Shown here: positions 24,055-40,530 of the stretch, piece by piece
How positions within the stretch are numbered: position 1 is the stretch's first letter
Layout of the letters: the number at the start of each line of letters is the position of its first letter
Source: an uncultured delta proteobacterium
Lineage (GTDB): Bacteria; Desulfobacterota; Binatia; Binatales; Binataceae
Direction: 5' to 3'
Length of the DNA stretch: 64,000 bases
Assembly: GCA_963793115.1 (NCBI GenBank)
Contig: CAWBYV010000010.1
Location: 576,755-640,754 of the forward strand
Program-made: the position numbers and the translations under genes
Notes under the pieces: generated by a model
What the model saw: only the letters and a program-made list of their open reading frames with translations
Database searches by the model: none
Told to the model about the DNA's origin: nothing

Positions 24055-24843
24055 ATGGAATACAAGGAACTCATCGGCAGCCGGCGATCGATCCGCTTCT
24101 TCCAGTCGTGGCGTCCCGTCGAGCGCGAGAAGGTCCAGATAATGCTGGAGGCGGCACGGATCGCGTCTTGCGCGGTGAATGCCAGCTTCTTTCGCGCCAT
24201 CGTCGTCTTCCGCGACGACCTCGATCGCGCCACGCTCGACGCGCTCAAAACGCCGGTGTCGGGGCTCAACATCGAGCTGGCTCCCGTGCACATCTACTGT
24301 TTCGTGGACATGGGCGCCTACAAGGGCGCGCAAGCGCGGCTCAAGCAACTGGTTGACGTGGGCGCGCTGAACGCGACTCACGGCTGGAGCCACAAGTTCG
24401 TCGATGACTTCGTCTGGCCGAACATCCTGAAGCCGCTGGCCGACAACGCCGGTCAGGCGCAAGTGGCCGCCGCAGCCGCCTCCGATGCGGGAATCGCGGT
24501 CTGCCAGGCGATGCTCGCCGGAGTCGATGAGGGACTCGGCGTCTGCCTGTCGGCCTTCGTGTACGAGCCGATCAGAAAGATCCTCAACCCGCCCCCGGAA
24601 TGGCTGCCCCTGTTCGTGCTGCTGGCCGGATATCCGGCGGAATCGCCCAAGGCCGGCGGGCAGCGGCCGCGGCCGCCGCTCGAACAGCTTTACTTCGAGG
24701 GCAAGTACGGCAATCCGTTCAAGTCCGACCCCAAAGTTACCGAGCAGTTGCGCGCGAAGAAGATGTTCCAGGCGCCTGCGCCGCTGCCTTGGCGCAAGGA
24801 GGAGATCAAGGCGCTGGCGCGCATGTTCGGACTGCCCGAATGA
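24055..24843 (+). CDS. nitroreductase-fold protein (module A)
   Basis: MEYKELIGSRRSIRFFQSWRPVEREKVQIMLEAARIASCAVN is a nitroreductase-type N-terminus. Paralog of 39747-40530. Confidence 0.75.
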   Translation: MEYKELIGSRRSIRFFQSWRPVEREKVQIMLEAARIASCAVNASFFRAIVVFRDDLDRATLDALKTPVSGLNIELAPVHIYCFVDMGAYKGAQARLKQLVDVGALNATHGWSHKFVDDFVWPNILKPLADNAGQAQVAAAAASDAGIAVCQAMLAGVDEGLGVCLSAFVYEPIRKILNPPPEWLPLFVLLAGYPAESPKAGGQRPRPPLEQLYFEGKYGNPFKSDPKVTEQLRAKKMFQAPAPLPWRKEEIKALARMFGLPE

Positions 24844-25199
24844 CTGCTCCGGCCAAGCCGCTCGCCGACTACGAATCGGTGCAAACCTGGTTCCGGGGAC
24901 TCACCGAGCAGTCGGGCGTCGATCCGCAGGCCGATCCGTCGAGGCTCGAGTTGCTGGGCGAGTTTTGCGCCCTGGTCGAGCTCGATCCTGACGAGATCGT
25001 GACCGCCTGCCTGCTGCACAAGGAGGGAGCCGAGACCAAGATCAGCATCAAGGGACGACGCCGGATGGCTGACAAAATCGCCGAGTTTCAGGCGCAGGAC
25101 GTGAGCGGCAGCTCGCGCGATCGTGCGCGGCGCGGCAACACGATTCGAAGTTTCCTCATTCACAACGGTATCCTGTTACAGTCCGGAATCCAGGCTTAG
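24840..25199 (+). CDS. small hypothetical protein coupled to nitroreductase-fold gene (module A)
   Basis: The ATG overlaps the upstream TGA (ATGA at 24840-24843). Starts MTAPAKPLADYESVQTWF.. and ends ..SFLIHNGILLQ. Paralog of 39403-39741. Confidence 0.6.
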   Translation: MTAPAKPLADYESVQTWFRGLTEQSGVDPQADPSRLELLGEFCALVELDPDEIVTACLLHKEGAETKISIKGRRRMADKIAEFQAQDVSGSSRDRARRGNTIRSFLIHNGILLQSGIQA

Positions 25200-33937: not shown

Positions 33938-35192
33938 TTACACGCCGAGGATGTGGATCGACAGGGCGGCCGCCTCGTTGCGGACCATGCCGCCGCCGTT
34001 CTCGGTGAGCCCGATCTTCGGATTGGAGACTTGGCGCTTTCCGGCCTCGCCGCGCAATTGCCAGAAGATTTCGCAGATCTGCGCCACTCCCGTCGCTCCG
34101 ACCGGATGGCCCTTTGCGAGCAGGCCGCCGGAGGTGTTCACCGGTATGCGTCCGTTGATCTCGGTGATCCCCTCGTCGATCAGCCTGCCGCCCTCGCCCG
34201 GCTTGCACAACCCTAACTCTTCGTAGGTCATCAGCTCGGCGGGCGCAGAGGCGTCGTGCAGTTCGATAACGTTTAGGTTTTCGGGACCGACGCCGGCCCG
34301 TTCGTAAGCTTGTTTGGCCGCGCGCGTCACGACGCCAGGCTCGTCGGCATTGTGATCGCTTCCCGAGGCCAGCACGGAGGCCATCACTCTAACCGGCTTG
34401 GCGCCGAAACGGGGCGCGATCGAGGACGCGCATAGAATCGTCGCCGCCGCGCCGTCGCCGATCGGCGAGCACATCAGCCGGGTAAGCGGCTCGGCGACCA
34501 CCGGAGAACTCAGAATGTCCTCCAGCGTGTACACCTCCTGGTATTGCGCATGCGGGTTGAGACTGCCGTTGCGATGGTTCTTGACCGCGATCCGCCCGAA
34601 CTGTTCCTTGGTCGTGCCGTATCGGTTCATGTGGGCGCGCGCCCCGGCGGCGTACAAGTCCATGAACATCGAGCGCGACTCGCCCGCGCCGCCAGCAGCT
34701 GGCTTGGGTTGCTCACCCCTTGCCGCTCGCTCGGCGCGCAGCCTCTCCTGCTGCGCGTTCATCTGGGCGACGATCTGTTGCATCAACTCCACGTCCACGG
34801 CCGAGCCGATCGCGGCGAAAGATTTCCTTTTGTCGGCGTGGTACAGCTTCTCCATCCCGAGCGCGAGCACCACGTCGTACATTCCCGATGCGACGTAGAG
34901 CCATGCGATGTGAAACGCGGTCGCGGAGCTGGCGCACGCATTCTCACAGTTGATGATCGGGATGCCGCCGAAGCCCATGTCGCGCAGGACGACCTGGCCG
35001 CGTATACACTCCTGCCCGGTGATCAGGCCGGCCATTGCGTTGCCGACCACCGCCGCTTGAATACCAGGCAGGCTCGACTCGCGCGTTGCCCATCGCGTTT
35101 TGCACCGCGTCACGGGCCAGGACCTTCATGCTCGTGTCGATGTATTTGCCGAACTTGACCATTCCGGCGCCGATTATCGATACCTCTCGCAT
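33938..35192 (-). CDS. thiolase-like protein (SCP-x/acetyl-CoA acetyltransferase family), frame-disrupted
   Basis: AAGGAG RBS, then MREVSIIGAGMVKFGKY.. (ORF 34944-35192). It continues in ORF 33938-35113 (..LPGIQAAVVGNAMAGLITGQE..NCENACASSATAFH..). The shift is near 35080. Paralog of 40566-41783. Confidence 0.8.
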
Positions 35193-35340: not shown

Positions 35341-35817
35341 TCAGCCGTGGCGCTGGTAGGTGCCCATGAGCGTGGCCTGCGCGAGGATATGGCCCTCCAT
35401 CGCCTTCTCGAGCTTCGCTTTGGTCGGCCGCCCGAGGTCCGGCACCGCACCGCCCAGAGCGTACAGTTTGAAGAAATAGCGATGGCGTCCGATCGGCGGG
35501 CATGGGCCGCCGTATCCGGTGCGCTTCCAGTCGTTAAGCCCCTCGCATGTGCCCGGCGGCAGAGAGTGGGGTTTCACCGCTCCGGGAAGGCCGGTCGCGG
35601 TGGCCGGGATGTTGTAAAGGACCCAGTGAACCCAGGTCATGCGCGGTGCCGCCGGATCGGGCGCGTCCGGGTCGTCCATGATGAGCGCCAGGCTTTGCGC
35701 CGCCCTTGGCACGCCCGACCATTCGAGCGCAGGCGAGGCGTCGGTCTCGTCGCATGTGTAAAGCTTCGGGATTTCGCCGCCGTCAGCAAAAGCCGGGGAT
35801 GTTAGCTTCAATGCCAT
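35341..35817 (-). CDS. YbhB/YbcL (PEBP) family protein
   Basis: MALKLTSPAFADGGEIP.., IMDDPDAPDP, GGPCPPIGRHRYFFKLYAL. Confidence 0.85.
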   Translation of the reverse strand: MALKLTSPAFADGGEIPKLYTCDETDASPALEWSGVPRAAQSLALIMDDPDAPDPAAPRMTWVHWVLYNIPATATGLPGAVKPHSLPPGTCEGLNDWKRTGYGGPCPPIGRHRYFFKLYALGGAVPDLGRPTKAKLEKAMEGHILAQATLMGTYQRHG

Positions 35818-35989
35818 AAGCTTGTATGCCCTCCCTGCGGCCGCAACCATGGCCGCATCATTTGCACGAATTACTGTTGCGCCAGTACTAAGCAAAATTG
35901 AAAAGCAGCTACTCCCATCAGCATCTTCGCGCAAAACCTCCCTTCTTTAGGCGCAGTTGGCTAGCACCGAGGGATTTTCTATCCGCCGC

Positions 35990-37603
35990 CTACAAGGAAG
36001 AAATCCACGGGCCTGTGCCCTCGGTGTCGGCGCTGCCAGGCCTTTGGTCGGCGCCGTACCGCTGGTGATAAGGAGCGATCAGGCATATCGCTTCCGCCTT
36101 CCCTACTGGCGAGCCTGTCTCCTGGTAAACGGTCGCGATGCAGCGTGGGCACGCAGATGCGAGGGAACAGCCCTGACAGCCTTTGAACGATCCATTACGG
36201 AGACTGCGAATGTAGCTCACCTGCTTGTTCGAATCCGCGAGAATTTCACGAAGTGGTTGCTCTCGGACGTTACCGAGCTCCCATGGGAAGGCGACGCATG
36301 GCCGCACGTTGCCACGCGCATCGATGGCCACGACAGTGCGGGCAGCGCCACAGACACTGGAGTCTGGATCGTCAATCGGACACCGCGAGAGTCCGTATCT
36401 TGCCCCGTTGGGCTTTCGGATCTGGGCCGAGCCTCGGAAGATAATGTCGGCCATGATGCCATGTCGATCGAGCCATTTCAGGTCGTCAGGGAGAAGGCGC
36501 TCCTCGAGGGAGCCTAAGGAGCCGTCTAGCTGCCGTGTCACGAGCAGGTCGAAACCAATTGGGGCATCGATGCTACGGGCAAAATCTACCAAGCCGTCAA
36601 GGTGATGGAAATTTGAACGCATGACAACACAAGACAGACGGCAGCGCTGACCCGCACTGTGGCAGCGCTTGAGCGCGTCAAGTGTCTTCGCGTGGCTCCC
36701 GCTCCGCCGCACGATGGCATCGTGCACGGACGGATCCATGCTATAGAGGCTGACTTGGACCTCGGTTATGTGCATGCGTCTAAACGCGGCGAGAACCGCG
36801 TCGTTTAACAAGGTTGCGTTCGTCTTGATGATGACCGAGAAGCGGAGGCGCCGTGCATACTCACAAATGCTGAGCAACCGCCGTTGAACAAGCGGCTCCC
36901 CGCCAGTGAAGATCAACTCCAGGCAACCGATTTCTCGAAGCTCGTCCAGGAGGCTCCAAAACGCGCGAACGTAGCCCCGGTAGCCTGATGCCTTCGTGGC
37001 CGGGAGATAGCAGTGCGTGCAACGCAGGTTGCACGCTGCCGTCATTTCGATGTAGGCCTGGAACGGGACCGCTGCCTTCGTGCAATAGGACTTGATAGAT
37101 TCACGCAGATCTGTGTCGCTCTGTGCTGGCCGCTCGCGAGGGAGTTCGTTTACCCGGAGAGCCCCTTGGCCCCGCACGAGGAGCCCGAGGGTAAGAAACG
37201 ATGATCGAAGGAAGGCATAGTCGCGTTCGGCCGTGACGCTATCAATGCCGTACCGCCGACACATCTCTCTGGGAACGTCGCGGTCCGCTACACCGCGATC
37301 GAGGGCTTCAACGATTTCGCCGGCGGTCTCGTTGAGAAAGACCATGCGACCGCCGTCCGTCAGGACGACGAGGTAAGTATCGGCAAATCGCTGGTAAGCG
37401 ATCGCGTCGTTCAGCCTCGCATCGCTAAACCCGACCGACTCTTCGAGGCATGTCCGCGGTGCAAATTCCTTCGCCATACCCGAGTTTCTCATGAGACGGT
37501 AGCCATCTCCCTTGCGACAGTCTGCAGCCCAGAGTGCTCGGGGCCCCGAATCCAACGCCTCGCGGTTGACAAAACGGGATGCGCGACGGAAGAGGTGCAA
37601 CAA
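35990..37603 (-). CDS. radical SAM/SPASM peptide maturase with N-terminal PqqD-like RiPP recognition element
   Basis: The start is uncertain (alternative ATGs at 37492 and 37477). The N-terminus VVLTDGGRMVFLNETAGEIVEALDRG..DYAFLRSSFLTLGLLV is PqqD-like. The core has AACNLRCTHCY (CX3CX2C). The C-terminus has CX12GX4C ... CX2CX5CX2C ... C, a SPASM-type auxiliary cluster pattern. Confidence 0.8.
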   Translation of the reverse strand: MLHLFRRASRFVNREALDSGPRALWAADCRKGDGYRLMRNSGMAKEFAPRTCLEESVGFSDARLNDAIAYQRFADTYLVVLTDGGRMVFLNETAGEIVEALDRGVADRDVPREMCRRYGIDSVTAERDYAFLRSSFLTLGLLVRGQGALRVNELPRERPAQSDTDLRESIKSYCTKAAVPFQAYIEMTAACNLRCTHCYLPATKASGYRGYVRAFWSLLDELREIGCLELIFTGGEPLVQRRLLSICEYARRLRFSVIIKTNATLLNDAVLAAFRRMHITEVQVSLYSMDPSVHDAIVRRSGSHAKTLDALKRCHSAGQRCRLSCVVMRSNFHHLDGLVDFARSIDAPIGFDLLVTRQLDGSLGSLEERLLPDDLKWLDRHGIMADIIFRGSAQIRKPNGARYGLSRCPIDDPDSSVCGAARTVVAIDARGNVRPCVAFPWELGNVREQPLREILADSNKQVSYIRSLRNGSFKGCQGCSLASACPRCIATVYQETGSPVGKAEAICLIAPYHQRYGADQRPGSADTEGTGPWISSL

Positions 37604-37719
37604 CCTCAGACTTCATTGCACGCGTGGCAGCCGCCGGGTGCGATTTTGGAAACCACCGCTTCCTTACTGACGAGCCTTCCTCACCAGGGCTATAGACGAG
37701 CCGGACACGGCTAGGGGAG

Positions 37720-37896
37720 CTAGCACTTGCACGTAATCTGCTGCCAATGGAAGTTAGTGGGGCAGGCTGCGCCAGACATGGAGACTTTGGCGGTAGTGCC
37801 ACGGATTTCAGGAGCCTTGTACTGGAGCCTTTCTTCGACCGTGGTCTCCCGGGTGTTCCTTTTCTTCTGGAGTTCCCTCACCACCATCTTCTTCAT
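37720..37896 (-). CDS. candidate RiPP precursor peptide (58 aa)
   Basis: Not in the ORF track (under 60 aa). GAGGAG sits about 7 nt upstream of the ATG at 37896. Reads MKKMVVRELQKKRNTRETTVEERLQYKAPEIRGTTAKVSMSGAACPTNFHWQQITCKC, stop TAG at 37720-37722. The leader is charged and the C-terminal tail has 3 Cys. It lies directly upstream of the maturase on the same strand. Confidence 0.55.
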   Translation of the reverse strand: MKKMVVRELQKKRNTRETTVEERLQYKAPEIRGTTAKVSMSGAACPTNFHWQQITCKC

Positions 37897-38244
37897 CGTA
37901 TACTCCTCTTCGCGTGATGGGTTAGAGACCGAGCGCGGTCATATGCGGCTTGGCGGCGTGAGCGCATCATGCTTGGTAATCATGTTCCGGTCGACCTACC
38001 CGAGTTTGCCAGGGTTTGCCTGAGACCCCGCATTTTCCATGCAAGGCCCGTACCCGCCCGCTACGAGGCGCTCCAAATGATTTCGGCGTGTTCGGATGGC
38101 CCGTTACGCACCAGTTGCGTCCTACGGAGACACGACTAGGCGGTGGCAAGGATCCCGAAACGGCGTACACCCCGTGGACTTCTCTTGAAAAGGGCACCGG
38201 CGCTCGCTGCCGACCGCAGCGGGCGGCGCTTCGCCCCTGCCAAA

Positions 38245-39153: not shown

Positions 39154-39402
39154 GTCCCAACTACTCCGCTTTCGCCATCCGCGCCATCACGCGGGGCCCT
39201 CCAGAGCTGCTAACCACGGGCTACGCCACCCGGCCAAACTCCACACCTGTCGAAGAACGGGCACCCTCCGCGAAGATCGTGGACCCGGCATTGCGGACAC
39301 CTGGGGGTGCCAGATGCCGGGCCATCTTGACACGCGTCCACACCTATGGAGCTTACCGCCCTCCCTGCGACCACAACGATGGCCGCGTCACGCAATTCGT
39401 GC

Positions 39403-39741
39403 TTATACCTGCAGCATCACGCCGTTGTGTATGAGAAATCCCATCACCGCCGCGGCGCTTCGTCGCGGCTCGGGCTGATGGTCGCGATCGCGAAACTCCT
39501 TGATCTTCTCCGCATAGAAGGAGCGCCATTTCGCACTGATTACCCGTTCGCCATCCGACTTTCGAATCCTGAAGCAGTGCTCGACAATCACATCTGGGTC
39601 TTCGCCGATGAATTGGCAGAATTGCTGAAGTGCAATGAGTTTCGCGGGATCTTCGGCGAACGGATCGCCACCCCATTCCCGGCTCAGCGCGCTCCTCCAG
39701 GTGCGAACGGATTCATATTCCTCCAGCGGCCGCATCGTCAC
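39403..39741 (-). CDS. small hypothetical protein (module B partner)
   Basis: MTMRPLEEYESVRTWRS.. ..GFLIHNGVMLQV. Paralog of 24840-25199. Starts 5 nt after the stop of the nitroreductase-fold gene. Confidence 0.6.
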   Translation of the reverse strand: MTMRPLEEYESVRTWRSALSREWGGDPFAEDPAKLIALQQFCQFIGEDPDVIVEHCFRIRKSDGERVISAKWRSFYAEKIKEFRDRDHQPEPRRSAAAVMGFLIHNGVMLQV

Positions 39742-39746
39742 GGTTA

Positions 39747-40530
39747 CTACTCCGGAAGGCCCAATTGCCTCGCCAGCCGCCGAATTTCCTCTTTGCGGCC
39801 GGGCTGCGGCGCCGCAGCCTGGATCAACCTGGATTGGCGCAATTCCTCGACGACTTTCGGGTCGCGCGGGAAAGGTTTGCCGTACTGGCCAAGGAAGTAT
39901 TGCTCCTCGAAAGGGGGACGCGGCCGTTGCCCGCCCGCCTCGCGCGATTCAAGCGAATAACCGACGTTCAGCACGTAGAGCGGCAGCCAATCCTGAGGCG
40001 GCTTGACGATTTCATTGACCACCGGCGCAAGGAACGCGGTCAGGCACGCGCCCAGTCCCAGCTCGAACGCCATCAGCAATCCCTGGCAAGCGGCCACTCC
40101 ACAATCGAAGGCCGCCATCACAGGATAGTGCGGAGTCTGGGTCATCGGCTTCAGGAGATGCGGATAGACGATCTCGTCAACGAACTTGTGGCTCCATCCG
40201 TGACTGGCTGCCACGACGTTGGCGTCGTAGAGTCTCCTTGAGCCGCGCGCCCTGCACGCGGTTCACCACGCCGAGGTCGGCATAGAGATAGATATGCACC
40301 GGAGCCAGTTCGATCACGACCGCCTGCACGGGGGTCTTCATCTTTTCGAGCTCGGCCTTGGGTATCTCGTCGCGCTTGACCACCACGGCGCGCAGCCAGT
40401 GGGCGTTGACCGCGCAGGACGCCCGCAGGAAGGCCTCGAGAATCTTCTGGATCTTCTCCTGCTCGACGGGCCGCTTGGGATCGAAAAAGCGAATCGAGCG
40501 CCGCGTTCCGACCAATTCTTGGAATTCCAT
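39747..40530 (-). CDS. nitroreductase-fold protein (module B), frame-disrupted
   Basis: MEFQELVGTRRSIRFFDPKRPVEQEKIQKILEAFLRASCAVN (ORF 40177-40530) continues in ORF 39747-40214 (..ASHGWSHKFVDEIVYPHLLKP..). The junction ARLKE/LYDANVVAASHGW needs removal of one base near 40233. Collinear with 24055-24843. Confidence 0.75.

Follow-up and report, generated by a model that had tools for sequence, protein, structure and literature searches.

Many orphan families of peptides synthesised ribosomally and modified post-translationally (RiPPs) exist whose maturation involves radical S-adenosylmethionine (SAM) enzymes. By sequence profile as well as by Foldseek, the solved structures closest to the enzyme described here are SuiB, TigE, SkfB, CteB and PqqE. 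The locus consists of two genes on the minus strand of a stretch of 64,000 nucleotides (the window, in the following) from a likely member of the Binatota, a phylum for which metagenomes are almost the only source. The genes are a 58-codon gene for a Cys-rich precursor peptide and, downstream of it, a gene for an enzyme that combines a RiPP recognition element (RRE), a radical SAM core and a SPASM auxiliary-cluster domain. The module is a genuine two-gene member of an uncharacterised family within the well-known RRE-radical SAM/SPASM kind, not a new kind. The best explanation overall, to which we assign a probability of roughly 0.6, is a two-gene RiPP module that was stripped from a larger hybrid operon and lies on a repeat-flanked insert. 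A sequence-only reading of the window had proposed two open reading frames (ORFs) on the same strand, with the small one upstream, as precursor and maturase; both ORFs are found where it placed them, and its interpretation is supported. Each of its refuting conditions that was put to the test turned out in its favour.

Comparison with characterised systems

The closest characterised relative is SuiB/StrB (5v1q/5v1t), the Lys-Trp cross-linker of streptide, which has the same RRE, radical SAM and SPASM domains and a precursor gene beside the enzyme gene. SuiB is the best match in the sequence-profile search (E 5e-21) and in Foldseek (E 6e-15, TM 0.53-0.59), yet the identity is only about 16%, and the SPASM domain of the window enzyme has a CX2C where SuiB has CX3C. 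The cores of the window family are rich in Cys, whereas streptide has no Cys cross-link, and the substrate Trp is not conserved. It is absent from the precursor of locus L102 and displaced in that of L103, two relatives of minimal layout described below.

The highest NCBIfam scores of the enzyme are those against NirJ2 (115 bits, cutoff 500), StsB (103.9, cutoff 625), MftC (96, cutoff 265) and PqqE (91.1, cutoff 381); scores against PapB (76.6, cutoff 340), the streptide-type model WgkB (70.2, cutoff 650) and AlbA (70.1, cutoff 850) are lower. SkfB (6efn), CteB (5why), AlbA, StsB and PapB are likewise RRE-radical SAM-SPASM enzymes that act on Cys-containing cores; SkfB is the second-best match in the PDB, and StsB aligns over its full length in NCBIfam. 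SKF carries a Cys-Met thioether; the core of the window family, with its invariant Met and Cys, is reminiscent of it. The sactipeptide synthase models StsB and AlbA are not reached, and family relatives score 75-80 against the SkfB model (cutoff 300). In contrast to sacti- and ranthipeptides, two of the three Cys of the window core lie at the extreme C-terminus, and PapB-type acceptors (Asp or Glu) are absent. The core has three Cys, not the six of SCIFF, and no Cys-X3-Asp/Glu.

The cofactor maturases PqqE and MftC also remain below their cutoffs, and the window precursor ends in Cys-Lys-Cys. The sulfatase maturase anSME is missing from the top 25 NCBIfam matches and ranks 21st or lower in Foldseek. 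Its sequence match is limited to the SPASM part, and the window enzyme has an RRE and a cognate peptide. The enzyme belongs neither to the sulfatase-maturase nor to the cofactor families, a grouping that would have spoken against the sequence-only reading: the best NCBIfam scores of 92-115 bits compare with cutoffs of 265-650, and the nearest structures are peptide maturases. TigE (8vpo), a radical SAM-SPASM cyclopropylglycine synthase (PMC10878394), aligns over its full length including the RRE and is sixth in Foldseek. It acts on Val methyl groups of repeat peptides, whereas a conserved Val repeat is absent from the family core. The N-terminal domain of the window enzyme matches the lasso peptide RREs TbiB1 (5v1u, E 3e-6) and TfuB1 (6jx3, E 4e-4), and the leader motif is common to both, but the window has neither a lasso cyclase nor a protease, and its RRE is fused to the radical SAM enzyme.

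Two further groups of systems are related to the family by gene content. The thioamidation systems of McrA thioglycine, thioamitides and thiovarsolins have YcaO and TfuA in common with most members of the family, which encode them downstream of the enzyme, whereas the window contains neither in its 64 kb. The surveys of thioamidated RiPP clusters that we examined contain no combination of a radical SAM-SPASM enzyme with a second radical SAM protein and Amidohydro_2. The SynChlorMet-type cassette (ScmC, PqqD, radical SAM/SPASM enzyme and small peptides) is the layout of the next-closest clade (P0010/P0011, about 33% identical), whose peptides have a YxxP[EQ][VI]R leader motif akin to that of the window precursor. 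In that cassette, however, the RRE is a separate protein, and ScmC has a P-loop for which no counterpart was detected in the window. ScmC (PF27840) has no match among the flanking ORFs scanned and occurs only in the next clade; the window enzyme scores 71.9 against ScmE and 65 against ScmF (cutoff 400). Loci L100 (4884-7690) and L101 (4135-7089) encode ScmC (PF27840), a standalone PqqD and a radical SAM/SPASM protein, L100 with three downstream peptides and L101 with one upstream peptide (…YEKPEVRTEEVFETLALTC…). The YxxPx[VI]R leader is as in the window precursor. Matches of the enzyme to pVip models of PADLOC were rejected as generic similarity of the radical SAM core, since viperins lack RRE and SPASM domains.

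Precursor peptide and maturase

The precursor is composed of a leader (about residues 1-37) with the motif Y26-K-A-P29-E-I31 and a putative core (about residues 38-58, VSMSGAACPTNFHWQQITCKC) containing Cys45, Cys56 and Cys58. The strong Shine-Dalgarno sequence claimed for it is present (Table 1). That it is Cys-rich stands; that it had escaped annotation does not, as it is already a called gene (P0121) in a public protein collection. A peptide gene of the same family lies beside the enzyme gene at every homologous locus with sufficient contig, so that the co-conservation of the small ORF, proposed as a check, is borne out. We found 10 distinct homologous precursors adjoining family enzymes across more than 12 independent loci. 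The pairing is therefore far beyond chance, and the small ORF is, judging from this conservation, the true precursor gene.

Alignment of the 10 distinct precursors yields the leader consensus Y-x-x-P-x-[IV] … G-K and the core consensus [ST]-M-[SA]-G-A-[GA]-C-P, followed by 10-11 residues and C-[KR]-C-stop. The segments [ST]M[SA]GA[GA]CP and C[KR]C hold the only core residues that are invariant across both architectures of the family (full operon and minimal, see below). Although the enzymes of full operons differ by 40-50%, their precursors nearly always have the identical 21-residue core SMSGAGCPTHTVQWQQVSCKC. Its codons show 9-12 synonymous and no amino-acid differences among the three full-operon loci compared, which is direct evidence for translation and strong purifying selection. 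The window core differs from this otherwise invariant 21-mer by six substitutions and one deleted residue, the gap falling between VSMSGAACPTN and FHWQQITCKC. One of the substitutions, G44A, affects the sole column that is invariant in all full-operon precursors and yet altered here. These changes may reflect relaxed constraint at positions that once served enzymes since lost.

A motif of the form [Y/W]xxPx[L/V/I/F/A] is bound by PqqD-type RREs in lasso peptides and another RiPP class (PMC13381572), and the window leader matches it, from which we infer binding of the leader by the RRE of the enzyme. The RNA between precursor and enzyme genes is no more stable than shuffled sequences (z +1.6), and neither a terminator nor a promoter consensus was found in this interval; an attenuator or terminator in the gap was rejected on these grounds.

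The maturase ORF begins about 240 nt downstream of the precursor. A 537-codon ORF, as earlier reported, does exist as the maximal form (35990-37603, from TTG 37603), but its 42-residue N-terminal extension has no counterpart in homologues. The N-termini of homologues and the public gene call P0001 (495 aa) set the start at ATG 37477 (M43) or 37492 (M38), so that the true maturase probably has 495 residues from ATG 37477, or else starts at 37492. The domains predicted from motifs all exceed their Pfam gathering scores, namely PqqD (PF05402, 26.2 bits against 23.4, residues 80-130 of the large ORF), Radical_SAM (PF04055, 83.7 against 29.5) and SPASM (PF13186, 37.1 against 21.5). The RRE region contains MVFLNETAGEIVEALDRG and is modelled by AlphaFold2 as beta-strands followed by three helices (pLDDT 76-90). 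The radical SAM motif is CNLRCTHC and the SPASM motif C376-X12-G389-X4-C394 … C434-X2-C437-X5-C443-X2-C446 … C465 (495-aa numbering). The three-part architecture is thus as the sequence-only reading described it, including the CX2C in place of the canonical CX3C, which is conserved throughout the family. The seven SPASM Cys and those of the CX3CX2C motif are invariant in the alignment. Of 129 columns without variation in the eight other members, the window enzyme keeps 125 (range among those members, 91-100%), and it does not sit on an unusually long branch; to judge from this alignment, it is not decayed.

Members of the family are very rare: among 5.8 billion proteins, a word-indexed search returned nine close relatives of the enzyme (47-61% identical) before identity dropped to 33%, a profile search added five, and a HMMER scan of 1.84 billion representatives at 50% identity found only three above 500 bits. 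A pattern scan of genome contigs for the generic radical SAM motif returned no family member, the best among the matches listed being 29% identical. The precursor and the enzyme clade have no curated model in NCBIfam and no description in the literature searched, in agreement with the earlier suggestion of an undescribed system. Second-tier relatives (250-330 bits) reach no NCBIfam cutoff either, and there is hence no named nearest family.

Full operon and minimal state

Most members of the family are found in a larger conserved operon, an example being that of Ca. Thiodictyon syntrophicum (CP020371; L002, 2407-12572). It consists of the precursor (one to three copies, upstream or after tfuA), a protein that we term U, the RRE-radical SAM-SPASM enzyme, a second radical SAM protein whose C-terminal part is PqqD-like, Amidohydro_2, YcaO and TfuA, with ThiF and ThiS in one subclade only. 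The YcaO is nearest to the model for thioamidation of McrA glycine (208 bits), and TfuA scores 170 bits. The full operon is a hybrid radical SAM and thioamidation RiPP cluster. We found no curated NCBIfam model for its specific components, nor a description of the combination of radical SAM and YcaO/TfuA in the literature searched. Its genes are contiguous with the enzyme wherever the contig is long enough, and short contigs offer no exception.

None of these partners, of which the closest relatives have five to seven, is found in the window. In tblastn searches, no homologues of U, the second radical SAM protein, Amidohydro_2, YcaO or TfuA were detected in the 64 kb, and nothing credible as a remnant of lost genes was seen near the locus up to E 10. 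Nevertheless, neighbour-joining trees place the window enzyme inside the crown of full-operon enzymes (188/200 and 189/200 bootstraps), where its sisters are P0002 and P0003 (179/200), each from a full operon. The minimal state of the window is derived, since the enzyme nests in the full-operon clade yet its partners are absent from the 64 kb.

A separate clade (P0124 and P0125, from loci L102 and L103-L105) lies at or near the base of the family, with 200/200 bootstraps for its monophyly. These loci have only a 38-39-aa precursor (MSKKIYVKPKILGSAGKASMAGAGCPTKSVPCNMNSCKC and MTKKPYVKPKILGSTGKVTMAGAGCPASAGTNMNWCRC), about 150 nt upstream of the enzyme. The existence of this clade, with nothing but precursor and enzyme, indicates that the pair can stand alone, and the window appears as a second, independent instance of an evolutionarily viable two-gene unit.

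Several features of the related loci are noted in passing. Protein U (about 260 aa) is encoded between precursor and maturase in L001 (5207-6001), L002 (2407-3204), L008 (1272-2054), L097 (937-1701) and L098 (8550-9392). It has no Pfam or NCBIfam family match; two motifs are conserved in it, KLEVFxNNECxxFGxxCxxHYRxNS and FxCPN, possibly as the site of a metal or an Fe-S cluster. The idea that U is a divergent ScmC is unsupported: the comparison was by eye only, and U has no P-loop and no Pfam match, including PF27840. L097 (1-702) carries three tandem precursor copies (…GKASMSGAGCPEKIVQWQQVSCKC) 5' of U and maturase. In the AT-rich subclade L005-L007, ThiF and ThiS are inserted between Amidohydro_2 and YcaO (L005, 5238-6217), as would suit a sulfur relay dedicated to thioamidation, and an extra 143-aa ORF lies downstream of the maturase. 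A second RiPP-like unit adjoins the YcaO operon in L004 (1632-3406, minus strand), in which a 461-aa radical SAM protein (Fer4_12) is accompanied by two small peptides in tandem (65 and 55 aa) with the pattern MNxVQQxADYTLDxxISD… and a C-terminal Cys. In L002 (3734-5826, Ca. Thiodictyon syntrophicum) an IS66 transposase and TnpB lie directly upstream of the maturase, and a serine resolvase is encoded about 1 kb downstream in the minimal loci L103-L105 (L103, 6045-6518).

Repeat-flanked segment and neighbouring genes

The precursor and maturase genes lie, together with a 302-aa zinc-ribbon ORF, in a segment of 3,497 bp that is bracketed by a 33-nt direct repeat (GCCCTCCCTGCGNCCNCAACNATGGCCGC) and holds exactly these three genes. 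The two copies are identical at 29 of 33 positions (maximum 24 in 60 shuffles) and are the only ones in the window, where none is expected by chance. The GC content of the segment is 0.585, against 0.628 in the flanks. At third codon positions the maturase ORF has 0.68 and the zinc-ribbon ORF 0.59, against 0.72-0.85 for the flanking genes, or 0.78-0.85 once the PEBP gene (0.72) is excluded. No recombinase is encoded inside the segment. The arrangement looks like what an insertion between two closely spaced genes would leave behind, and the repeats resemble a scar or an att-like site. Enzyme and precursor each form single-member clusters, while housekeeping proteins of the window share clusters at ≥90% identity with 8-19 others, one of them named "Candidatus Binatales bacterium". 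The ≥90% cluster of YchF is the basis for placing the genome, as likely, in the Binatales. The coordinates of all features are given in Table 1.

Table 1. Features of the precursor-maturase locus and the segment that carries it (window coordinates).
Feature	Position	Strand	Basis
Precursor peptide gene	37720..37896	-	58-codon ORF; begins MKKMVV, ends GAACPTNFHWQQITCKC
Shine-Dalgarno sequence GAGGAG	37903..37908	-	Direct sequence reading; 6 nt 5' of precursor ATG
RRE-radical SAM-SPASM peptide maturase, probable 495-aa form	35990..37477	-	Pfam, homologue alignment, public call P0001
N-terminal RRE, PqqD-like winged helix, residues ~20-97 (495-aa form)	37187..37420	-	PF05402, AlphaFold2 model, profile match to lasso RREs
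Radical SAM core	36581..37051	-	PF04055; CX3CX2C (C149/C153/C156) at 37010-37033
SPASM auxiliary-cluster domain, seven invariant Cys	36083..36352	-	PF13186
302-aa zinc-ribbon ORF, third gene of the inserted segment	38245..39153	-	Sub-threshold zinc-ribbon Pfam matches
33-nt direct repeat, left copy	35828..35860		Repeat search; ~11 nt upstream of likely PEBP start codon
33-nt direct repeat, right copy	39358..39390		Repeat search; 13 nt after stop of 112-aa host gene

The zinc-ribbon ORF, which has CxxC…CxxC at its N-terminus, accompanies the RiPP pair, and the gene order of the window recurs, with this ORF in the same place, in an independent Logan contig (L099). Nothing was found for it above the Pfam gathering scores or in NCBIfam, PADLOC or the PDB. 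In L102 a zinc-ribbon membrane protein is likewise encoded upstream of the precursor, but it is unrelated, and in view of this lack of similarity and of any family match the ORF was rejected as a recurring partner.

The immediate neighbours of the cassette are a YbhB/PEBP-family gene (35341-35934) and the zinc-ribbon ORF. The products of the flanking genes are thiolase-like proteins, CoA-transferases, an acyl-CoA ligase, a nitroreductase and YbhB/PEBP. One thiolase-like gene (33938-35192, minus strand) is apparently split by a frameshift, either as a pseudogene or by an assembly indel, with its N-terminus on an 82-aa ORF (34944-35192, MREVSIIGAGMVKFGKY…) and the remainder on a 391-aa ORF (33938-35113). 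The nitroreductase gene (39747-40530, minus strand) is split into overlapping ORFs of 117 and 155 aa beside the 112-aa ORF (39403-39741). A paralogous pair at 24055-25181 on the plus strand is intact and comprises a 262-aa nitroreductase and a small ORF 42% identical to the 112-aa ORF.

Proposed maturation and alternative explanations

According to the proposed mechanism, the 58-aa peptide would be translated and its leader motif Y26-x-x-P29-x-I31 bound by the PqqD-like RRE of the enzyme. The radical SAM cluster (C149/C153/C156) would then cleave SAM to the 5'-deoxyadenosyl radical, which would abstract hydrogen from the core, and the SPASM auxiliary clusters would assist in forming one to three intramolecular cross-links, each with a mass change of -2 Da. 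Thioethers from Cys45, Cys56 and Cys58 to carbons in the S/T-M-S/A-G-A segment or nearby would be the most probable type of bond, at a little under even odds. They are favoured because the three Cys and this segment are conserved, whereas Trp is not conserved in the minimal clade. As to its history, the module would descend from the larger hybrid operon, in which the same precursor was also processed by the second radical SAM protein, Amidohydro_2, U and the thioamide-forming YcaO/TfuA pair. These partner genes would have been lost in the lineage of the window, leaving the pair and the zinc-ribbon ORF on the 3.5-kb insert flanked by the direct repeat. The module is likely to function in its present host.

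Several observations weigh against this account. The modification is a prediction from sequence. The AlphaFold2 model is moderate overall (pLDDT 67.5) and resolves the SPASM region poorly, and no clear Shine-Dalgarno sequence precedes the start codon of the maturase. Neither a protease nor an exporter is present; indeed, as the sequence-only reading had stated, no protease, transporter or recognisable immunity gene adjoins the pair. Two nearby genes look frameshifted, through assembly indels or local gene decay, and the window core is the most divergent of the family, for which decay instead of adaptation could be the explanation. The partner genes, moreover, could sit elsewhere in the genome, outside the 64 kb. 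Finally, the nearest solved relatives form a Lys-Trp C-C bond, a cyclopropane, an S-C-alpha thioether and an S-C-gamma thioether, respectively. As these are four different reactions, fold and homology cannot assign the chemistry. Homology fixes the predicted kind of enzyme, an RRE-guided radical SAM-SPASM peptide maturase, not its reaction.

The divergence of the core bears on whether the locus works at all. It could be a non-functional relic of a YcaO/TfuA-radical SAM hybrid cluster, with ORFs that are intact only since the loss is recent. The derived loss of the partner genes, the alteration of the otherwise invariant G44 in this most divergent of cores, the apparent frameshifts in the thiolase and nitroreductase genes and the occurrence of the arrangement in the databases in one lineage only, within the full-operon clade, all fit decay. 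A relic is nonetheless unlikely, as both ORFs are intact, the Shine-Dalgarno sequence of the precursor is strong, and the enzyme keeps 97% of the family-invariant positions and all 10 cluster-binding Cys on a branch that is not lengthened. The peptide, too, has lost none of the residues that both architectures share invariantly, its Cys-to-Cys spacing, shorter by one residue, is that of the L103 precursor, and an independent clade lives with the identical two-gene layout. If the locus is functional, its peptide could still be fully modified and thioamidated as in its relatives, with the second radical SAM protein, Amidohydro_2, U and YcaO/TfuA acting in trans. The window covers 64 kb of a contig that is at least 705 kb long, and the core retains the WQQ motif that is otherwise specific to the full-operon clade. 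We regard this as very unlikely, however, given that the partners of full operons are contiguous with the enzyme wherever this can be seen, that no partner gene occurs in the window, that the cassette resembles a self-contained 3.5-kb insert, and that G44A, H48N and the deletion fit a constraint lost together with the missing enzymes.

A functional module need not make thioethers. The product could instead carry a C-C or C-O cross-link of the SuiB, PqqE or MftC type, an epimerised residue or a modification of Cys-Lys-Cys, and its Cys would then serve as metal ligands or disulfide partners; taken together, these are possible but on balance doubtful. The Lys-Trp cross-linker SuiB is the best match in sequence and structure, MftC and PqqE are among the higher-scoring full-length NCBIfam matches, Trp51 and Lys57 are present in the window precursor, and the C-X-C terminus resembles, with the Cys-Pro-x-His of the relatives, a metal site. 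But Trp is not conserved in the minimal clade, being absent from L102 and displaced in L103; both the Glu-X3-Tyr of PqqA and the C-terminal Val-Tyr of MftA are missing from the precursor; every equivalog score is far below its cutoff; and the conserved features are the three Cys and the SMSGA segment. Rather unlikely, in our view, is a cross-link of novel type or topology on the invariant [ST]-M-[SA]-G-A-[GA]-C-P…C-[KR]-C, which would define a new RiPP class of two grades. The window and L102-L105 would then make a bare cyclised peptide and the full operons a thioamidated, further tailored one, possibly binding metal through Cys, His and thioamide.

Implications

With this locus the radical SAM/SPASM RiPPs gain a precursor and enzyme family that is very rare and not curated. 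Part of the value of the locus lies in its kinship to an undescribed hybrid cluster of radical SAM and YcaO/TfuA enzymes. The same precursor and first enzyme occur in nature with and without thioamidation, second radical SAM protein and amidohydrolase branch, which constitutes a ready-made dissection of the pathway. The window cassette (about 1.9 kb) is a natural, compact version confined to the first step and is easily tested. If the reading as a novel class were true, the window would be a natural knock-out and would reveal core positions (Gly44, His48 and the extra residue) that serve the YcaO/TfuA, second radical SAM, Amidohydro_2 and U steps. For the Binatota, the insert would document a RiPP module that travels as a small, repeat-flanked segment.

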